A DNA stretch of 10,226 bases from the IMG/VR virus record IMGVR_UViG_2690316311_000004, positions 1 to 10,226 of that record; one strand, given 5' to 3'. Origin of the DNA: a virus (lineage: Duplodnaviria > Heunggongvirae > Uroviricota > Caudoviricetes). Each line of letters opens with the position of its first letter. The first letter of the stretch is position 1. A program made the translations under genes and the position numbers. Shown here in pieces: positions 1 through 7,830 of the stretch. A model generated the notes under the pieces. That model saw only the letters and a list, made by a program, of their open reading frames with translations, was not told the origin of the DNA and did not search any database.

Positions 1-541
1 ATACGTCGTGCCCGTCTTCCTGTAACTGGTTCAGCAGATTCATCAGCAGTGAGTTCTCCGTCAGGCCGAGAACACCAGACGGCGAATGAATCAGGCTGCG
101 GTAGCCGGGCTTCAGTGGGGCGCTGTATTCTTTTTTGTCTTCCAGCTTGATCGCCTCCATAATGGCGGGCATGAAGCCTGACAAGACCTTCTCCACTTTT
201 GTTTCTTGTTGTCTTAAACGTTTCTCGCATTCAATGAAGTAGCGTCGTACCTGACGACCTTTTTCGTTACGCTCGACCATTGCTAGTTCTTTGGCTGTAT
301 CGAGGGTGAGGTGGTACTCTTTGCGGTTGTGGCCGCCTCTACCAGATGTTTGCTTTCCCAAATTGGAAAGCAAAATATAGTCTTGATTTTCAATGAATTC
401 GTATTCTGAAATGCGATTTGTAATCCATGCTGCAAACACCTTTTTAACACCTAAAAAAGCGTGCAGATCGCGGGCATTGCAAAGTAGGGCTGTTTCGTTA
501 GATATAGTGCCGTTGAATACGGGGATGAGTTGACTGGTCAT
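1..541 (-). CDS. Phage antirepressor, AntA/KilAC-type (N-terminal ~180 codons; 3' end runs off the window start)
   Basis: Minus-strand ORF with ATG at 541-539 preceded by AAGGAGG (plus 547-553) 5 nt upstream; no stop before position 1. Translation [58 protein letters not shown]...[42 protein letters not shown] fits the AntA-type antirepressor N-terminal domain as I recall it. Not in the ORF track because truncated. Confidence 0.8.
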
Positions 542-570
542 GATGACCTCCTTTGAAGTTTTAGTTAGCA

Positions 571-593
571 ATCACCAGTTAGTAGCTGGTGAT
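571..593. promoter_or_regulatory. Perfect 8-bp inverted repeat ATCACCAG-ttagtag-CTGGTGAT about 30 bp upstream of the antirepressor start
   Basis: Visible; lies in the antirepressor promoter/5' leader region on the minus strand. Binding factor unknown. Confidence 0.35.
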
Positions 594-705
594 CGGGTGT
601 CAACTAGAGCCTTCAAAGACGCTCCGGGCATATTCCCCTTTTGGGTATTGTATTACGCCTCTCCACCCGACCTTTGTACGGATGTGACTATGCCAAATTG
701 CAGGC

Positions 706-735
706 ATAAAAAAGCCGCAAAGCTATCGGGTGCGG
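706..735 (-). terminator. Possible weak terminator ending the leftward operon
   Basis: Minus-strand RNA CCGCA-(11-nt loop)-UGCGG followed by CUUUUUUAUG; short stem and long loop. Confidence 0.3.
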
Positions 736-865
736 GTGACCGCTTTGAAGTTCTAGTGCGGTCAGTATGCGATAGCTCTGGCGGCATTGTCAAATCATGC
801 GCCACTGAGTCCAGCAATCTCTGCAATACCAATAGCGAGATAATCGCGATTCGTCAGGCGTGATT

Positions 866-1114: not shown

Positions 1115-1761
1115 GCTGCACGCTCCCGCCCCTGGTTGTCTGTTGGTGACAGCGGAGCATTGCTGAATGCATTTGTTAATCCGCCAATATCCAACGCGTA
1201 TCCAGGGTGTAGTTGCACTGCCGGGTCTTCGCACTGATTACCCCAAACATCGAAACCATGAGACGACTGGCGGGCGAACAGTTCAATGCGAGAAACATCG
1301 CCTAACAATTGCACAAGTTTTTCACGAACGATATCTGGTTTTCTTGAATGCTCAAGCCGCGGTGCGGTAAATGACTGAACGATCCCTGCATTAATGCGCG
1401 TAGGTAGTTTTCCCTTTACCGCAAACAGGCAATCTTCACTATTGGCGCGAGTCATGTGCCCCATACCCATAACCAGTTTATCTGGTTGTCGACTACCACA
1501 TTTTATCCACGTGAAGCCCTTCATGGTCATCAGACGGAATCCCCAGGCTTCAACAACTTTTAGTGCTTCGAGTGGTTGTGTTGGCACCCACCACATGGCC
1601 AACAGACAGTTTTCATCGGCCAAATCCCACACAGGAAGGCGGCAGATATCCAGCACACTCATAACCGGATATTTAAAACCGGCACCGCGATTACCATCTG
1701 CGGCTTTGTCCCGGTATACCCAGGGTGGATCTGCATAGATTAGTGTGTATTTCTTAGTCAT
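1111..1761 (-). CDS. MT-A70-family (beta-class) N6-adenine DNA methyltransferase
   Basis: 216-aa ORF with ATG at 1761-1759. N-terminal LIYADPPWVY (DPPW catalytic motif) and C-terminal RIELFARQSSHGFDVWGNQ are characteristic of the MT-A70 family as recalled. Stop overlaps the start of the downstream small ORF. Confidence 0.85.
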   Translation of the reverse strand: MTKKYTLIYADPPWVYRDKAADGNRGAGFKYPVMSVLDICRLPVWDLADENCLLAMWWVPTQPLEALKVVEAWGFRLMTMKGFTWIKCGSRQPDKLVMGMGHMTRANSEDCLFAVKGKLPTRINAGIVQSFTAPRLEHSRKPDIVREKLVQLLGDVSRIELFARQSSHGFDVWGNQCEDPAVQLHPGYALDIGGLTNAFSNAPLSPTDNQGRERAA

Positions 1762-2053
1762 AAACCACCCCGCAACATCCTATGCCGCTATAGTCGCCAC
1801 GGCGAAGGCCGTTACCTTTTGTGATACATTGGTCCCTGCGAACCGCGATCCTTGCACGCTCAACATCACCAGAAGCAACATCCATACACTGAAGCCAAAG
1901 GTGGGCGGCAATGCGGAACTGCCCTTTTTTCTCTCTTTCAATCGCGCGTTTTTCGATCTCTATCGCCGCAGGAGTAACGGCAACAACCTTTGAAGGGCTG
2001 CGCATTGAAACCTTGTTCATGTGATATTTTTCAAGTCGGCTTAACTTTCTCAC
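1754..2053 (-). CDS. Hypothetical protein; start uncertain (GTG 2053, or ATG at 2020 or 2005)
   Basis: ORF overlaps the methyltransferase start by 8 nt, suggesting co-translation. The GTG at 2053 has no good SD; the ATG at 2005 has AAGG 5 nt upstream. No recognisable domain. Confidence 0.4.
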   Translation of the reverse strand: MRKLSRLEKYHMNKVSMRSPSKVVAVTPAAIEIEKRAIEREKKGQFRIAAHLWLQCMDVASGDVERARIAVRRDQCITKGNGLRRGDYSGIGCCGVVYD

Positions 2054-2460: not shown

Positions 2461-3342
2461 TTACATAGATGTTTCGTTTAATTCTTCCCGACGAACGCTG
2501 TAAACGTCGGTGGCTTTTGCCAGCAGTTCGTCATCATCTGAAAGTTTTTGTGCAATGTATTTGTAAGCCTTATCCAGTTCGGAGACAGTGCTGTAATTCA
2601 TCGCTGCGCTGGTAAAGGCCATCAGCATTTCTTCTGGATCACGGCTATCCGCTTTACGCGTTTGCTCATCAGGCTTTTTCGCTGGTTTAGCGTTGATCAG
2701 ACTGTTCATTCCCGCAGCAGTGGTCGTTTGCGGAGTAATGTCTCGCTCAACGCGCGGTGCCGTTTCCTGTAATTCGTCAGGGGTGTAAACACCGAGAAGT
2801 ACATCAGGAGCGTGCAGGCGAGCCCATCGTTTCGTGCAAAGATAGGCAAGCTGCTGGCGCGGATCCTGTTCCCACAATGGAGAGTTACGCACTCCGGCTT
2901 GCGCCATACTGATGGTAAGCTCACGGGGTTCTGCTTCTCCTTTAAGAACTGCTGACACAGTTACCGTCAGATTCGGTGATTTATCTGTTTTGCCGTTAAC
3001 ATTCGACCAGTCACCGCTCCAGCGATAATTCAGGCGTGTCGCTAGCAGGCTGGAAGAGGATACGACCGCGTTTACCAACTGTGCTTCGTAGCCTAACGTT
3101 CCGTTTACCACATGCGTTTTCTGCGCCACGGCGAAAGGATTCATTCCCCACTGTGCCGCCTGCATGGTCACCGCCAGACAATCGGCAGGTTTGCCTTCAA
3201 GATGTTTCGGTACAGTCGCTTTGCTTTGTGACATCAACTCCGCGAAACGCACCAGTTGATTCATGCCCTCCGGGCTGAAGATTGCCGCAGCAGTACCTAC
3301 AGTTGCGCCTGGTTGTGATGTGATTGCGATATCATTGCTCAT
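2461..3342 (-). CDS. Single-strand annealing recombinase, Bet (Red-beta)/RecT superfamily
   Basis: 293-aa ORF whose ATG overlaps the exonuclease stop (ATGA). Segments MQAAQWGMNPFAVAQKTHVVNGTLGYEAQL, QQLAYLCTKRWARLHAPDVLLGVY and ERDITP parallel lambda Bet (ANQYGLNPW..., KAMIQCARLAFGFAGIY, ERDITP) as I recall it. Sits directly after an exonuclease gene. Confidence 0.85.
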   Translation of the reverse strand: MSNDIAITSQPGATVGTAAAIFSPEGMNQLVRFAELMSQSKATVPKHLEGKPADCLAVTMQAAQWGMNPFAVAQKTHVVNGTLGYEAQLVNAVVSSSSLLATRLNYRWSGDWSNVNGKTDKSPNLTVTVSAVLKGEAEPRELTISMAQAGVRNSPLWEQDPRQQLAYLCTKRWARLHAPDVLLGVYTPDELQETAPRVERDITPQTTTAAGMNSLINAKPAKKPDEQTRKADSRDPEEMLMAFTSAAMNYSTVSELDKAYKYIAQKLSDDDELLAKATDVYSVRREELNETSM

Positions 3343-4160
3343 ACGTACATATCCTGTTTACGTGCCCAGTCAGGGCGTTTAATAATTTCCACTCCGCCCC
3401 ACTCATCGTTGATGCGGCATTCGTGATAGGTATTCAGATCCCGGCGGAACAGAGCGTGCCCGGCATCGACATCCGGCGCATCCAGCTCGAACACGCGTAC
3501 CGGATACCGACCACAATCAATGCTTTCGCTCACGGCAAGAAAGAAAAAACCATGTGGCTGACCAGTAACCCTCATTGCGCCTTCGCGGTACATTGCGTCC
3601 TGCACGTGGTAGCGGAACTCCTCGATGTGGCGTGCAAAACGGTCCATATCTGCAACCTTTTTCACGTCGACGATCACGTTGTGCTCGTTCAGCCATTTGT
3701 CTGGACGAATTCGGCACAACTCACCCGTATCTTCATCGTTCCAGTACATTGATGCTTCGCAGTAACCATGTGCTTCCAACATCCAGCGTGCCGCCGGGTG
3801 AGCCATTGCGCTATCACGCATCAGCTCCAGTTTTCGCCACTGCTCTGCATCAAGTACCGAAATCCCCATATCCGCTACATCACGAATAAATGCCTCTTCG
3901 TCAGCTTTACCTTGTTTTGTCCGACGATCGAATTTCGGTGAAACGATGAAGCGTTTGTCAAACTCTCCAGGTTCCAGAAGCAGACAGTGCAGAGCAGTAC
4001 CCATGTCCAGTGCAGACTTCTTCTCTTCGTCTTCCGGAGCAGCCTTCACCCATTTCAGAAGGGCAGGGTTCTTAGCCACCATATCTAGCTGCGACTTACT
4101 CACGCCGTCACCGGCGTGGTAGTCCTCGTTGCTGATATCGAAATAAATTCCCGGATTCAT
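3339..4160 (-). CDS. Exonuclease VIII-like (RecE C-terminal type) PD-(D/E)XK nuclease, recombination partner of the annealing protein
   Basis: 273-aa ORF. N-terminal GIYFDISNEDYH, a PDKW...VIVDVKKV (D...D-x-K) block and HVQDAMYREG (Q-x3-Y) fit the PD-(D/E)XK fold of prophage exodeoxyribonuclease VIII-like proteins (recalled). Coupled to ORFs on both sides by ATGA overlaps. Confidence 0.8.
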   Translation of the reverse strand: MNPGIYFDISNEDYHAGDGVSKSQLDMVAKNPALLKWVKAAPEDEEKKSALDMGTALHCLLLEPGEFDKRFIVSPKFDRRTKQGKADEEAFIRDVADMGISVLDAEQWRKLELMRDSAMAHPAARWMLEAHGYCEASMYWNDEDTGELCRIRPDKWLNEHNVIVDVKKVADMDRFARHIEEFRYHVQDAMYREGAMRVTGQPHGFFFLAVSESIDCGRYPVRVFELDAPDVDAGHALFRRDLNTYHECRINDEWGGVEIIKRPDWARKQDMYV

Positions 4161-4458: not shown

Positions 4459-4611
4459 TCAGCCCTCCCATATCTCGTTATCGTTGGCCACATCGCGAGC
4501 TTCTTTGCTGACGAAAGCCCACTTAATACCTTCCTGTAAGGTGCGGAACTTCCAGCTCATGAATCCGCATGCAGTAACGCAGTACCAACCGTTGATGATT
4601 TTCCACTGCAT
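4459..4611 (-). CDS. Small ORF (50 aa) at the kil-like first position of the leftward operon
   Basis: ATG at 4611-4609 with GAGG SD 9 nt upstream. Product MQWKIINGWYCVTACGFMSWKFRTLQEGIKWAFVSKEARDVANDNEIWEG. Its stop lies in the SD of the next gene. Absent from the ORF track, presumably under a length cut-off. Confidence 0.35.
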   Translation of the reverse strand: MQWKIINGWYCVTACGFMSWKFRTLQEGIKWAFVSKEARDVANDNEIWEG

Positions 4612-4667
4612 AACTTGTTACCTCGGCCTGTTATCGTTGAGGTAATAATTATGCGTATCTGGTTTGA

Positions 4668-4673
4668 TGTCAA
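4668..4673 (-). promoter_or_regulatory. Candidate -35 hexamer (TTGACA on the minus strand) of a pL-like leftward early promoter
   Basis: Perfect TTGACA on the minus strand about 55 nt upstream of the 4611 start. The -10 is ambiguous (CATAAT/TAATTA at about 4645-4652). An operator palindrome lies just upstream at 4693-4707. Confidence 0.35.
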
Positions 4674-4692
4674 TAGATATGAGTTAAAAAAA

Positions 4693-4707
4693 TTACCCAT
4701 TAGGTAA
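4693..4707. promoter_or_regulatory. Operator-like palindrome TTACCC-att-AGGTAA (copy 1 of 6)
   Basis: Visible palindrome, extendable to ATTACCCATTAGGTAAT (4692-4708). Sits between the repressor-gene terminator and the leftward promoter. Confidence 0.6.
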
Positions 4708-4717
4708 TCGAATAGGC

Positions 4718-4744
4718 AATAAAAAAGCCGCCTTCTGGCGGCTT
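4718..4744 (-). terminator. Intrinsic terminator of the repressor gene (minus strand)
   Basis: Minus-strand RNA reads AAGCCGCC-AGAA-GGCGGC followed by TTTTTTATT: a 6-7 bp GC stem with 4-nt loop and U-run, 20 nt downstream of the repressor stop. Confidence 0.75.
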
Positions 4745-4764
4745 ACTTACTGAAAAATATGATT

Positions 4765-5349
4765 TTATTGTTTGTTTTTTTCGTTCTGGTTGATGACAAA
4801 TTCAATGTAACTTTCGATCTTTGCTTTCTCGGTTTCGGGTAACAATGCGTAGCGCGAGCGATCATAGTTGATGGTCGCAGGGTCGTGCGGGTGAATCAGT
4901 AATTCATAGCCGTGACGCCCGAATGCGGATGCAACATTCTCCAGGGTGGAAATGGAAACGCTGACCTCATTGTTTAACAGGCGGCTGATTGTCACTTGGG
5001 CGACGCCGGATGCGCGGTGTAGTTTTCCCTGCGTTGAAAGGTCGCGGCTTTCGCTCATCCAGCGTTCCAGGTTGTGAGCCGCCAGCTGACCTATATCGCT
5101 CGGGCCGACAGGCTGAAAACCCTCCTGAGAAAGCGAGCGATCAATATCAAGCCAGTTACGGGGTTTATTGGCGGCAGCTTCAATTTTTCGTGCAACCTGG
5201 TCGCCGATAACCTTCTTGCCAAGAGCCCAGCGGTTTACCAGATTTGCCTGAGTTCCAAGTTTTTCTGCCATCCGCGTCTGAACACCATTGAATTCACGGT
5301 CGATCAAGTCGTTGAGATTTTGCCTGCGGACGTCCTGGATACTTTTCAT
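4765..5349 (-). CDS. Prophage repressor candidate with two tandem HTH (XRE/CI-type) domains and no recognisable S24 peptidase domain
   Basis: 194-aa ORF divergent from the Cro-like gene. First HTH around QTRMAEKLGTQANLVNRWALGKKVIGDQVARKI; second around LHRASGVAQVTISRLLNNEVSVSISTLENVASAFG. No Ala-Gly/Ser-Lys autocleavage module seen. Poor SD, consistent with a near-leaderless maintenance transcript. Confidence 0.8.
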   Translation of the reverse strand: MKSIQDVRRQNLNDLIDREFNGVQTRMAEKLGTQANLVNRWALGKKVIGDQVARKIEAAANKPRNWLDIDRSLSQEGFQPVGPSDIGQLAAHNLERWMSESRDLSTQGKLHRASGVAQVTISRLLNNEVSVSISTLENVASAFGRHGYELLIHPHDPATINYDRSRYALLPETEKAKIESYIEFVINQNEKNKQ

Positions 5350-5372
5350 TTTCTGGAAAATCGCCTCATATA

Positions 5373-5391
5373 TGAATCAGTAGATGATTCA
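5373..5391. promoter_or_regulatory. Unique perfect palindrome TGAATCA-gtaga-TGATTCA about 25 bp upstream of the repressor start
   Basis: 7-bp arms with 5-bp spacer, visible in the sequence. A different motif from the recurrent TTACC/GGTAA palindrome and not repeated elsewhere in the window. Confidence 0.4.
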
Positions 5392-5404
5392 ATTTAAAGC
5401 AATA

Positions 5405-5419
5405 TTACCCAACAGGTAA
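5405..5419. promoter_or_regulatory. Operator-like palindrome TTACCC-aac-AGGTAA (copy 2 of 6), OR-like region
   Basis: Visible palindrome in the divergent repressor/cro intergenic region. Confidence 0.6.
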
Positions 5420-5449
5420 ATGCACCTCATAGGTAACTATCCTTGATTT

Positions 5450-5478
5450 TTGTTACCTTATGGGTGAATATTTATTAT
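5450..5478 (+). promoter_or_regulatory. Candidate pR-like promoter for the Cro-like gene (-35 TTGTTA 5450-5455, 17-bp spacer, -10 TATTAT 5473-5478)
   Basis: Hexamers read by eye; an alternative -35 is TTGATT at 5443-5448. Operator copy 3 lies between -35 and -10. Confidence 0.4.
5453..5467. promoter_or_regulatory. Operator-like palindrome TTACCT-tat-GGGTGA (copy 3 of 6, one mismatch)
   Basis: Visible; overlaps the proposed pR spacer. Confidence 0.5.
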
Positions 5479-5503
5479 CTGAAATAAATATCAGGCAATA
5501 GCT

Positions 5504-5734
5504 ATGAGCGATAACGGACATTTCGATTTCAAAAAGCACTGGCTTGCACTTACTCCGGATGAGCGTGAAGCCTTCGCACAGGAAGCCGGAACAACGAGTC
5601 ACTATATCCAGACTCACTTAACAGGTAAGCGCAAAATGCCAGGTAAGGTATTGATGAATGGGCTTTTTAAAGCCTGTAAAACAAGACAATGGCTGCGCTC
5701 AAAAGCAGAACTGGCATACTTCTTCTACTCATGA
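5504..5734 (+). CDS. Cro-like / YdaS-like small HTH regulator
   Basis: 76-aa ORF divergent from the repressor. HTH-like segment EAFAQEAGTTSHYIQTHLTGKRKMPGKVL. Followed by an intrinsic terminator. Weak SD (AGG 8 nt upstream). Confidence 0.65.
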   Translation: MSDNGHFDFKKHWLALTPDEREAFAQEAGTTSHYIQTHLTGKRKMPGKVLMNGLFKACKTRQWLRSKAELAYFFYS

Positions 5735-5756
5735 TATCCAGCTACAACCCTCTGTA

Positions 5757-5782
5757 GACCGCCACCCGGCGGTCTTTTCATA
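5757..5782 (+). terminator. tR1-like intrinsic terminator after the Cro-like gene
   Basis: GACCGCC-accc-GGCGGTC followed by TTTTCATATCTATT: 7-bp GC-rich stem, 4-nt loop, T-rich tail. Confidence 0.65.
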
Positions 5783-5789
5783 TCTATTC

Positions 5790-5804
5790 GTACCTCAAAG
5801 GTAA
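5790..5804. promoter_or_regulatory. Operator-like palindrome GTACCT-caa-AGGTAA (copy 4 of 6, one mismatch)
   Basis: Visible; immediately downstream of the tR1-like terminator. Confidence 0.45.
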
Positions 5805-5884
5805 TAAAAAACCAAATCTGGTTGATCTTTTTTTTGTGTCAGCACAAAATGACCGTAATCCCAATACTAATAACAGGGCTTACC

Positions 5885-6100: not shown

Positions 6101-6934
6101 ATGAGCAGACATGCAACAGATTGGGCCTGGGAGACAGATCCAGGTAGCTCATCATTAAAGCTCATACTGCTCTCGATGGCTGACAGAGCCGATGAATATA
6201 ACCTCTGCTACCCCAGCATAGAACGCCTCGTTAAAGACACTTGCCTGAATAAAAAAACCGTGCAGGCCGGGCTTATATCGCTCATGAAAATGGGGCTTAT
6301 TTCAGATACCGGAGAGAGAAAGGGAGCGACGAAAAGAGTGCGGGTTTTCTCTCTTAATATAACCAAAAACGGGAACATTAAAGGCAACCGGGAAGGGGGT
6401 AATGAACCCGAAAACGGTAATGTTACCGAAAACGGTAATGTTACCGAAAACGGGAATATACCCAAAAACGGGATGTTGAATGATCCCAAAAACGGGATGT
6501 TGAATGATCCCAAAAACGGGATCCAGAACCAGTCATATAACCAGTCATTTAACCAAGAGAGGGAGAGCAGGACAAAAAGCGGGGATTCTGTGCCTCATGA
6601 CCCCGGCGCAAACAACGCCGTGATGAATAACTTTGTTCCTCCTGGTGGGCCAGGGCAATTAGGCAAATTTGTCATGCATGAACAATGGCAACCATCAGAT
6701 GACTTTCTTCGGAAAAGCTCATTGCAGGGGATCTACCTGGACAGTCTGCCAACGGCACAGGAACTTGCAGAGTTCAGAATTTACTGGATGGCTGAGGGTA
6801 AGGCATACCATCAGGCGCAGTGGGAGCAGAAGCTGGCAAGGCGGCTGCAGATTAGCAGACAGAAGCAATCAACATTACCTGATAACAACGTTCCGCACTG
6901 GAACAGCCCTGAAGCATGGGAGGATTTCTTGTGA
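6101..6934 (+). CDS. Replication initiator (O-like): N-terminal winged-helix replication HTH domain, iteron-encoded linker, C-terminal DnaT-like domain
   Basis: 277-aa ORF with GGAG SD 8 nt upstream. N-terminus WAWETD...SSLKLILLSMADRADEYNLCYPSIERLVKDTCLNKKTVQAGLISLMKMGLIS is replication-initiator HTH-like. C-terminus GKFVMHEQWQPSDDFLRKSSL...ELAEFRIYWMAEGKAYHQAQWEQKLARRLQISR closely parallels E. coli DnaT (GKFAMYPDWQPDADFIRL...[29 protein letters not shown], recalled). Stop overlaps the P start (GTGA). Confidence 0.85.
   Translation: MSRHATDWAWETDPGSSSLKLILLSMADRADEYNLCYPSIERLVKDTCLNKKTVQAGLISLMKMGLISDTGERKGATKRVRVFSLNITKNGNIKGNREGGNEPENGNVTENGNVTENGNIPKNGMLNDPKNGMLNDPKNGIQNQSYNQSFNQERESRTKSGDSVPHDPGANNAVMNNFVPPGGPGQLGKFVMHEQWQPSDDFLRKSSLQGIYLDSLPTAQELAEFRIYWMAEGKAYHQAQWEQKLARRLQISRQKQSTLPDNNVPHWNSPEAWEDFL
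6361..6552. repeat. Origin-like iteron array inside the O-like gene
   Basis: Seven copies of a CC(C/G)AAAACGG(G) core at 6363-6373, 6407-6417, 6426-6435, 6444-6454, 6461-6472, 6485-6496 and 6509-6520, with 18-bp then 24-bp periodicity. Several are palindromic (ATCCCaaaaacGGGAT, GTTACCgaaaacGGTAA), resembling lambda ori iterons (TCCCTCAAAACGAGGGA, recalled). Followed by a tandem 12-mer CCAGTCAT(A/T)TAA x2 at 6529-6552. Confidence 0.7.
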
Positions 6935-7753: not shown

Positions 7754-7768
7754 TTACCTGTTAGGTAA
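7754..7768. promoter_or_regulatory. Operator-like palindrome TTACCT-gtt-AGGTAA (copy 5 of 6; perfect, extends to ATTACCTGTTAGGTAAT)
   Basis: Visible; upstream of the candidate promoter -35 at 7788. Confidence 0.6.
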
Positions 7769-7787: not shown

Positions 7788-7816
7788 TTGATTTCGTGTC
7801 TTATGTGGTTTTTAAT
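7788..7816 (+). promoter_or_regulatory. Candidate sigma70 promoter for the DUF1064/Ea22 block (-35 TTGATT 7788-7793, 17-bp spacer, -10 TTTAAT 7811-7816)
   Basis: Hexamers read by eye; flanked by operator copies 5 (upstream) and 6 (overlapping the -10 and start region). Confidence 0.45.
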
Positions 7817-7830
7817 TACCTCAGGGGTAA
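7816..7830. promoter_or_regulatory. Operator-like palindrome TTACCT-cag-GGGTAA (copy 6 of 6)
   Basis: Visible; ends 3 nt before the ATG at 7834 and overlaps the proposed -10. Confidence 0.55.

Follow-up and report, generated by a model that had tools for sequence, protein, structure and literature searches.

Rep, a 194-aa protein encoded on the minus strand at 4765..5349 (stop codon included) of a 10,226-bp stretch of phage DNA (IMG/VR record IMGVR_UViG_2690316311_000004; the whole stretch is called the window below), was assigned from its open reading frame (ORF) and homology to the master repressors of the phage SPC32H Rep family. The reading proposed here, with a probability of about 0.8, is that Rep is an SPC32H-family master repressor, that the SOS response induces the prophage through a small LexA-controlled antirepressor (Ant), and that the AntA-type protein encoded at the edge of the window is accessory and gated by an RNA. 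An earlier sequence-only reading had paired the repressor with this AntA-type protein. The window was 100% identical to positions 5395907-5406132 of the E. coli 2015C-4944 chromosome (NZ_CP027390.1) and to several other Shiga toxin-producing E. coli (STEC) chromosomes. It represents the early/immunity region of a phiV10/epsilon15-like (Uetakevirus) E. coli prophage, which is intact, integrated at guaA and ~40 kb long, lies between guaA and yfgI and runs from int through the lysis genes. The immunity segment (4600-5850) showed 96-98% identity to phiV10, TL-2011b, vB_EcoP_ZX5 (ZX5) and other Uetakevirus (epsilon15-like) members, and the immunity region was carried by 541 of 5426 complete E. coli genomes (~10%). 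Positions outside the window are given for L003, a 48-kb locus containing the prophage.

Fold and family of the repressor

Rep aa 1-190 matched PDB 5D50_A, 'Repressor', over its full length (phmmer, E = 4e-42), and 5D4Z was also matched; the titles of the two entries are 'Crystal structure of Rep-Ant complex' and 'of Repressor', each 'from Salmonella-temperate phage'. By tblastn, the PDB-matched repressor was identified as the product of the rep gene of phage SPC32H, with 41.8% identity to Rep. In the account of SPC32H Rep that PMC9986798 gives with reference to Kim et al. 2016, the protein consists of an N-terminal DNA-binding domain (DBD), a middle dimerisation domain (MDD) and a C-terminal tetramerisation/Ant-binding domain (CAD, 'TetDloop'). 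The corresponding parts of Rep were 54, 33 and 46% identical to those of SPC32H Rep. They comprise an N-terminal helix-turn-helix (HTH) DBD (aa 1-70; 5140..5349, minus strand), a middle domain of XRE/HTH_3 fold that matched 5D4Z (Rep 92-198) in both sequence and fold (aa 89-155; 4885..5085, minus strand), and a CAD recognised by its identity (aa 156-194; 4768..4884, minus strand).

Pfam HTH_3 was detected at aa 106-147 (E = 1.2e-9), and YdaS_toxin, a Cro-like HTH, at aa 21-61 with a sub-threshold score (E = 3e-4, 21 bits against a 30-bit cut-off). PHROG repressor families matched the two halves of Rep separately (aa 1-76 and aa 98-191). The AlphaFold2 model, made from an alignment of 45 sequences (mean pLDDT, the predicted local distance difference test, 78), was all-helical and contained the helix pairs H24-31/H35-43 and H107-114/H118-125. 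Its layout begins at the N-terminus with a four-helix HTH domain and continues, after a linker that is disordered at aa 74-84, with a five-helix XRE-like domain; at the C-terminal end, a short helix (aa 164-168) stood ahead of the final helix (aa 172-193). Three residues invariant in the 45 homologues, N36, R40 and W41, are located within and next to H35-43, the second of the paired helices in the N-terminal HTH. F184, likewise invariant, aligns with SPC32H Phe190, which is a tetramer interface residue (PMC9986798). A recent duplication as the origin of the two HTH segments was rejected, as BLASTP of one against the other found no similarity.

The two HTH-like segments that the sequence-only reading had seen in the 194-aa repressor were recovered with Pfam, PHROG and the AlphaFold2 helix pairs. 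Its wording of two tandem HTH domains stands as to the folds and needs amending as to function. Because the SPC32H homologue uses the corresponding domain for dimerisation, according to the account in PMC9986798, the HTH_3-fold middle domain of Rep is by analogy better read as the MDD than as a second DNA reader.

The same reading had found nothing resembling the S24 peptidase of lambda CI, which agrees with the present analysis. No Pfam match to Peptidase_S24 was obtained in Rep at E <= 0.1, the Rep sequence contains neither an Ala-Gly nor a Cys-Gly dipeptide, and the AlphaFold2 model has no beta-rich domain. Foldseek of the model against the PDB placed 5D50 and 5D4Z first, followed by SinR, DdrO, P22 C2 and ClgR, all with an XRE-type HTH. 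Among the best 50 matches listed, all were Rep-family or HTH-containing proteins and none had a peptidase fold. A degenerate peptidase fold was rejected on these grounds, and the second segment has an HTH_3 match and an XRE-like fold. From sequence and model, Rep is predicted to be unable to cleave itself. SPC32H Rep is reportedly not cleaved either. Inactivation of Rep by RecA-stimulated autocleavage, or by another protease acting through a cryptic or degenerate peptidase fold, is thus very improbable. The one point found for it is general, in that absence at the sequence level leaves room for cleavage by a separate protease; against it stand the results just given and the statement in PMC7380047, made there with reference to Kim & Ryu 2013, that this repressor family is inactivated via protein-protein interaction with a LexA-controlled antirepressor. 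Like lambda CI and LexA S24 repressors, Rep is encoded divergently from cro between the early operons and has multiple OL and OR operators. Unlike them, it lacks the S24 domain and the cleavage dipeptide, and it would oligomerise by a different C-terminal module, to judge from the description in PMC9986798.

Rep was 100% identical to phiV10 gp40 and ZX5 ORF21; the GenBank note on gp40 reads 'putative transcriptional repressor; two helix-turn-helix motifs'. When the identical repressor of ZX5 was over-expressed, no free phage was obtained and lysis-gene mRNA was reduced by 99.97-99.99% (PMC9782041), which supports a master-repressor role of Rep. An uncleavable Rep with a LexA-controlled Ant is already known (crystal structures, 2016), as are the two HTH motifs annotated in phiV10. 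The present copy is an uncharacterised member of the family that shares 42% identity with the solved protein and its whole sequence with annotated phage proteins. In the 541 genomes, Rep is labelled only 'helix-turn-helix domain-containing protein' and the small ant 'hypothetical', so that the assignment is of use for annotation.

The small Ant and the operators of Rep

The small ant gene encodes 85 aa and is located outside the window, ~33 kb away (L003 37387-37644, minus strand). Its product matched PDB 5D50_E, 'Anti-repressor protein' (E = 2e-46), and was 86.7% identical to SPC32H ant. The LexA box TACTGTATGTTTATACAGTA is found 20 bp upstream of its start. Boxes were scored with a position weight matrix (PWM) made from 21 E. 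coli SOS boxes, the weakest of which scores 12.9. The box of the small ant scored 27.5, level with the best training boxes, and boxes at the equivalent place before ant scored 25.4 in SPC32H, 27.8 in strain 447 and 25.5 in phiV10. A strict scan of the whole prophage for CTGT-N8-ACAG gave three exact matches, with a good box only upstream of the small ant. One of the others, GGCTGTACGGGTTTACAGCA (L003 18515-18534), is probably not a LexA site, as its PWM score is only 10.6; it sits 68 bp upstream of a gp49-family gene that stands alone on the minus strand between those for terminase and portal. The other, after the capsid gene, was rejected as GC-rich.

The small Ant was found in 35 of 36 phage records having a full-length Rep homologue, and no match to it was found in phage records without Rep. 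In E. coli, the ant locus was present in 531 genomes, compared with 541 for the immunity region. SPC32H Rep binds DNA as a tetramer that is disassembled by the tetrameric antirepressor Ant, as summarised in PMC9638917, and Ant is made after LexA self-cleavage, as PMC7380047 states in citing Kim & Ryu 2013. Because Rep and Ant are homologous to the crystallised pair and a LexA box is located at ant, induction by the SPC32H route is proposed for this prophage, and the small ant, not the AntA-type gene, is its likely SOS trigger. Antirepressor-mediated induction, which had been predicted from the window, is thus upheld in kind, in line with the SPC32H Rep family, and the partner is different, since the SOS-linked 85-aa Ant lies outside the window. 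The same order of events, from SOS through LexA and an antirepressor to an uncleavable repressor, is found in Gifsy-1 and -3, Fels-1 and coliphage 186 (Tum) (PMC7380047), which differ from the present prophage in their antirepressor and repressor families.

Candidate operators of Rep were recognised as the palindrome TTACC-N5-GGTAA. The window contained 12 copies with up to 2 mismatches, where 2.9 were expected (none of 200 shuffles reached 12), and the 48-kb locus 16 copies with up to 1 mismatch, where 0.8 were expected. Of the 15 sites that fall within the prophage, 13 were intergenic, intergenic sequence being 9.4% of the span (binomial P = 4e-12). The OL palindromes, TTATCGTTGAGGTAA at 4631-4645 and TTACCCATTAGGTAA at 4693-4707, flank a promoter-like site of the leftward early operon (TTGACA-17-AATTAT, 4673-4645, minus strand; region 4631..4707). 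The OR sites are located between rep and cro (region 5405..5478), at 5405-5419 (exact), 5422-5436 (2 mismatches) and 5453-5467 (1 mismatch); the last is contained in the spacer of a rightward promoter-like site (TTGTTA-17-TATTAT, 5450-5478, plus strand). Further sites are an operator-like palindrome ahead of the replication genes (5790..5804) and two exact palindromes ahead of the DUF1064 gene (7754-7768 and 7816-7830). Sites of L003 outside the window (range 2546-41004) precede int, the portal operon, the holin gene, the tailspike/ant divergent region and genes downstream of ant. In SPC32H the same palindrome is present three times at OR, between rep and cro, three times at OL and once upstream of ant. 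These distributions point to TTACC-N5-GGTAA as the predicted operator of Rep, by which Rep would directly control most transcription units.

Operator palindromes before almost every transcription unit suggest one repressor acting on many promoters instead of an antitermination cascade; no N- or Q-like gene was found among the family matches of the scanned ORFs or in the RefSeq annotation of the prophage. The operator motif shared with SPC32H also makes cross-immunity between Salmonella and E. coli phages possible.

The two systems can be compared directly. SPC32H and this prophage share the genus Uetakevirus, a full-length Rep homologue of DBD-MDD-CAD layout, an 85/86-aa Ant (87% identical), a LexA box directly upstream of ant and the palindrome at OR, OL and upstream of ant. 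They differ in that Rep is 42% identical (middle domain 33%) and that this prophage adds two fusion proteins, AntA-Ant and BRO-N-Ant, whose diverged Ant-like C-terminal domains are encoded behind C4-type RNAs. For the SPC32H system there are the structures 5D4Z and 5D50, and the present one was read from sequence and models.

The AntA-type protein and its leader RNA

The AntA-type gene is cut by the window edge (2..541, minus strand), so that aa 1-180 of its 218-aa product are encoded in the window and the full protein in the complete prophage. Its start at 541 with a strong Shine-Dalgarno sequence (SD) was placed correctly in the sequence-only reading, the ATG being at 541-539 and GGAGG at 551-547, five nt upstream. 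The Pfam AntA domain (PF08346) covers aa 22-92 (E = 2.7e-26). The C-terminal part, aa 137-213, matched SPC32H Ant (PDB 5D50_E, E = 4.6e-14) and was 42% identical to the small Ant of the same prophage. Over its last 80 aa, the AntA-type protein was 100% identical to the C-termini of two others, namely a BRO-N protein whose gene directly follows the small ant, and ZX5 ORF4. The prophage thus encodes three Ant-domain proteins (small Ant, AntA-Ant and BRO-N-Ant), compared with only the small one in SPC32H. No Pfam family covers the Ant-like domain. A protein-database search with it returned 27 clusters, mostly stand-alone forms of ~95 aa, and such 'Ant2' domains stand alone in proteins of Klebsiella, Raoultella and E. 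coli. An alignment of small Ants and Ant2 domains, in which a natural Ant/Ant2 chimera (P0105) was included, contained 18 invariant positions. Numerous potential Ant homologues are said to have been noted when the SPC32H pair was first described, and fusions may figure among them. In the literature consulted, a link between AntA-type proteins and the Ant-like domain was not found stated. By its predicted domain make-up, the AntA-type protein is an accessory mosaic paralogue, composed of a P1-type AntA N-terminal domain and an Ant-like C-terminal domain, and not a conserved trigger.

Over-expression of ZX5 ORF4, a BRO-N 'anti-repressor', brought lysogens down from 10^9 to 10^6 and reduced rep mRNA by 75% (PMC9782041). 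Because the C-terminal domain of the AntA-type protein is an Ant homologue and identical to the C-terminus of ZX5 ORF4, the protein is a credible antagonist of Rep, acting through that domain, and we regard this as an even bet. The Ant-like domain also offers a testable reason for the anti-repressor behaviour of ZX5 ORF4. The ZX5 paper ties ORF4 activity to no particular domain, leaves the small Ant 'hypothetical', mentions neither SPC32H nor LexA and draws no connection from ORF4 to SPC32H Ant (PMC9782041). ORF4 differs from the AntA-type protein in its N-terminal domain, which is BRO-N and not AntA.

The Ant-like domain of the AntA-type and BRO-N proteins could instead be an oligomerisation module only, or be aimed at the repressor of another prophage or phage and not at this Rep. 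The small Ant of SPC32H is described as tetrameric in PMC9638917, so that the fold could serve self-assembly; the domain is just 42% identical to the small Ant; the AntA N-terminal domain with its upstream RNA occurs in O157 lambdoid prophages with an unrelated C-terminus; and cross-talk between Salmonella antirepressors is documented, as PMC7380047 notes in citing Lemire 2011. We nevertheless consider this unlikely, as ORF4, with the same C-terminal 80 aa, cut lysogeny and rep mRNA in a phage with an identical Rep, and as the 18 positions are invariant across the small Ant and the fused and stand-alone Ant2 forms, with P0105 as a natural chimera between them.

Distribution bears on a further alternative, namely that the AntA-type protein is the antirepressor by which the prophage is induced. 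The AntA gene with its upstream region and neighbour gene was found at >=80% coverage in 19 E. coli genomes, compared with 541 with the immunity region. The slot beside int that it occupies is variable, holding a DUF1382 gene in phiV10 and a Ser/Thr phosphatase gene in the O26 RM10386 prophage, whose immunity region is 100% identical. The AntA-type gene was not found in phiV10, the O26 RM10386 prophage or SPC32H, the first two of which have an identical Rep. On co-occurrence alone, the pairing of the AntA-type protein with Rep fails, and what remains of the earlier pairing is the Ant-homologous C-terminal domain. That domain, its identity to the one in ZX5 ORF4, which shifts the phage to lysis, and the want of a cleavage module in the repressor all speak for an AntA-type inducer. 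With no LexA box anywhere in the window (best PWM score 9.9, below the weakest training box, and nothing in 542-865), a conserved small Ant behind a consensus LexA box in the same prophage and an mRNA predicted to be translationally closed, such a role is improbable. The sequence-only reading had already seen no LexA box upstream of this gene, a point in which it also differs from the LexA-controlled antirepressors of Gifsy-1/-3, Fels-1 and 186.

The control of the AntA-type gene, which had been left open, may be exerted by a C4-like antisense RNA together with an SD-occluding leader. A C4-like structured RNA matching Rfam sRNA-Xcc1 (RF02221) over the full model length is located at 583..672 on the minus strand (62.9 bits against a gathering score of 53, E = 9e-10). 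It has the shape of C4, in that a long outer stem encloses two hairpins and is followed by ACCA. The loop of hairpin 2, CUUUGAAG, is the exact complement of CUUCAAAG (558-551), near the ribosome-binding site (RBS) of antA; this target and the SD GGAGG overlap by one base (547..558, minus strand). A copy of the target 8-mer, ACUAGAACUUCAAA, is found at 750-743 in an 'a1b1'-like position, in the loop of a 5' hairpin (763-738, minus strand). This hairpin follows a promoter-like site, TTGACA-18-CATACT (793-764), in the leader region (708..793), and is itself followed by a terminator-like hairpin with U6 (735-708). In the minimum free energy (MFE) fold of the full leader, the loop is paired in cis with the SD (-80.6 kcal/mol, z = -5.1; 0 of 200 shuffles as stable). 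No obvious coupled upstream ORF of the icd/orf45 type was seen in the 41 nt that separate the RNA from the ATG.

Counterparts were observed at related loci. Rfam isrK and C4 matches precede the BRO-N-Ant genes of this prophage and ZX5, phiV10 gp23 (a BRO-N protein without an Ant-like domain) and the AntA-Ant gene of strain 447. In that strain the AntA-Ant fusion occupies the BRO-N slot directly downstream of the small ant. The order isrK/a1b1 and then C4 was found in L003, L007, L008 and L009, and is paralleled by the AntA-type leader. The C4 loops of the sister genes, CCACUUAG, match their own RBS regions, CUAAGUGG-AG. The second loop pairing differs between loci and is yet complementary in each (ACGCCAA/UUGGCGU in L003, AGACCAA/UUGGUCU in L007). 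The case for riboregulation draws on the contiguous loop/target 8-mers, these counterparts and the cis fold. Global RNAduplex comparison of the RNA with its flanks was set aside, since it gave long uninformative duplexes; for strain 447 the outcome was not significant (8 of 100 shuffles).

No Rep operator was found within 2 mismatches at the antA promoter, and control of that promoter by Rep was rejected for this reason; transcription could still reach the gene by read-through from the leftward operon. Taken with the LexA scan, the leader architecture suggests riboregulation of the AntA-type gene, with silence as its default state and an own promoter that is probably neither LexA- nor Rep-controlled. 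A plus-strand ORF at 540-863 (107 aa; phrog_38841, 2.9e-56) is probably a spurious call that has been propagated: it is antisense to the sRNA and leader, and its ATG overlaps the AntA-type start.

The leader also occurs elsewhere. An O157:H7 lambdoid prophage (L006 3697-4451) contains an AntA gene whose upstream region differs little from the spacer 542-865 (324 bp); the sRNA-Xcc1-type element, leader and AntA N-terminal domain are the same there, and the C-terminus is unrelated. Because the AntA N-terminal domain and leader are found with a different C-terminal domain in the lambdoid prophage, they can be regarded as a mobile module. Onto this module of riboregulator and AntA N-terminal domain, different effector domains are grafted.

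Similar arrangements are known from P1 and Gifsy-1. In the immI region of P1 and P7, c4 RNA blocks ant (Citron & Schuster 1990, as cited in PMC7313666), and in isrK-orf45-anrP of Gifsy-1 the mRNA is transcribed but remains untranslated until IsrK acts in trans (PMC4825925). The AntA-type gene resembles both in its AntA-family N-terminal domain, in an RNA just upstream whose loop is complementary to the RBS and in a second copy of the target further upstream; its mRNA would be transcribed and translationally closed like that of anrP, by prediction only. It differs from both in that the window RNA matches sRNA-Xcc1 and not C4 and that no icd/orf45-like coupled ORF was seen, and from P1 Ant and AnrP in its SPC32H-Ant-like C-terminal effector domain. 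Within the genus, phiV10 and ZX5 share with this prophage an identical Rep and isrK and C4 elements ahead of the BRO-N gene; phiV10 differs in its int-proximal slot and in the BRO-N protein described above. The combination suggests that P1-like immI control and SPC32H-like SOS control are joined in these phages. The modest new point is that proteins of the 'antirepressor Ant' and BRO-N types end in an Ant-homologous domain and are encoded behind C4-type riboregulators.

On the proposed reading, Rep would bind the three TTACC-N5-GGTAA sites of OR, the two of OL and those in front of nearly all remaining units. DNA damage would lead to LexA cleavage and derepression of the distant 85-aa ant gene, and the small Ant would bind Rep and free it from DNA. 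AntA-type mRNA would be kept translationally silent by the C4-like antisense RNA and the leader. The AntA-type protein, once made, probably also binds Rep, as a second-tier or anti-immunity antirepressor and not as the SOS trigger. AntA-Ant and BRO-N-Ant could provide feedback for commitment once derepression has occurred, induction independent of SOS, or anti-immunity during superinfection.

Several points weigh against this reading. Rep is only 42% identical to SPC32H Rep and its binding to Ant is extrapolated, though Ant itself is 87% conserved. The E. coli co-occurrence of rep and ant rests on counts and not on per-genome overlap, and the SPC32H operator sequence was taken from motif enrichment and not from a footprint. 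The window RNA passes the gathering score for the Rfam sRNA-Xcc1 model and not that for C4, and we know of no demonstrated antisense role for the sRNA-Xcc1 family. The ZX5 experiment was performed with an over-expressed glutathione S-transferase (GST)-tagged BRO-N fusion and showed neither direct binding nor which domain acts.

A wider scheme, to which we give somewhat less than an even chance, is a three-input network directed against one uncleavable repressor, consisting of the LexA-gated Ant and two riboregulated Ant2 fusions (AntA-Ant and BRO-N-Ant). If true, a portable Rep-binding domain would be carried on interchangeable N-terminal domains, each behind a C4/IsrK-type gate with a distinct loop specificity. 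The fusions would then provide the SOS-independent induction, commitment feedback or anti-immunity considered above. The Ant fold would be a shuffled module, unrecognised because SPC32H has no fusions and no Pfam family exists. The hosts are often O26, O103 and O157 STEC with several prophages, and it may be speculated that antirepressor cross-talk affects their co-induction.

The BRO-N-Ant gene (L003 36361-37386, window-equivalent 32361-33386) follows the small ant, and its Ant-like C-terminus is the same as that of the AntA-type protein. It is preceded by Rfam isrK (37228-37304) and C4 (37120-37203) matches and an operator palindrome (37341-37355, all L003), which suggests repression by Rep as well as gating by RNA. 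A direct repeat of 299 bp (96.7% identical; L003 3862-4160 and 36338-36633) spans the 3' ends that the AntA-Ant and BRO-N-Ant genes have in common, with window positions 1-160 in the first copy. The copies are 32 kb apart in the same orientation, and most of the prophage would be lost if they recombined.

Gene content of the window and prophage

The prophage comprises an integrase gene, a leftward early operon, the divergent repressor/cro pair, O/P-like replication genes, podovirus structural genes, a tailspike gene and a lysis cassette. On the minus strand of the window, the AntA-type gene (2-541) is accompanied by an 82-aa gene and genes for an MT-A70 methylase, a PerC-like protein, an AlpA-like protein, RecT and a PD-(D/E)XK exonuclease, two small genes and the repressor gene. 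An intrinsic terminator follows rep (4725..4744, minus strand), with an 8-bp GC-rich stem and a T run; a terminator is annotated there in phiV10. The plus strand carries a cro-like gene, a 66-aa gene, DnaT/O-like, lambda-P-like and DUF1064 genes and ead-like genes. The cro-like gene (76 aa; 5504..5734, plus strand) is divergent from rep, matched phrog_35, 'transcriptional repressor' (5.6e-13), and is followed by a terminator (5756-5775).

RecT (293 aa) and the PD-(D/E)XK exonuclease (273 aa) are encoded by separate, overlapping genes (window 2461-4160, minus strand), and the corresponding position in phiV10 is annotated as one fused 'recET' CDS. PerC-like proteins activate the genes of the locus of enterocyte effacement (LEE) in enteropathogenic and enterohaemorrhagic E. 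coli (EPEC/EHEC); the PerC-family transcriptional-activator homologue (window 1754-2053, minus strand; Pfam 6e-7) is located here in the leftward operon of a prophage common in STEC. Within the DnaT/O-like gene, three adjoining tandem-repeat arrays with periods of 18, 24 and 12 were observed (window 6398-6555). They encode NGNVTE/KNGMLNDP peptide repeats and resemble origin iterons inside an initiator gene, as in lambda O.

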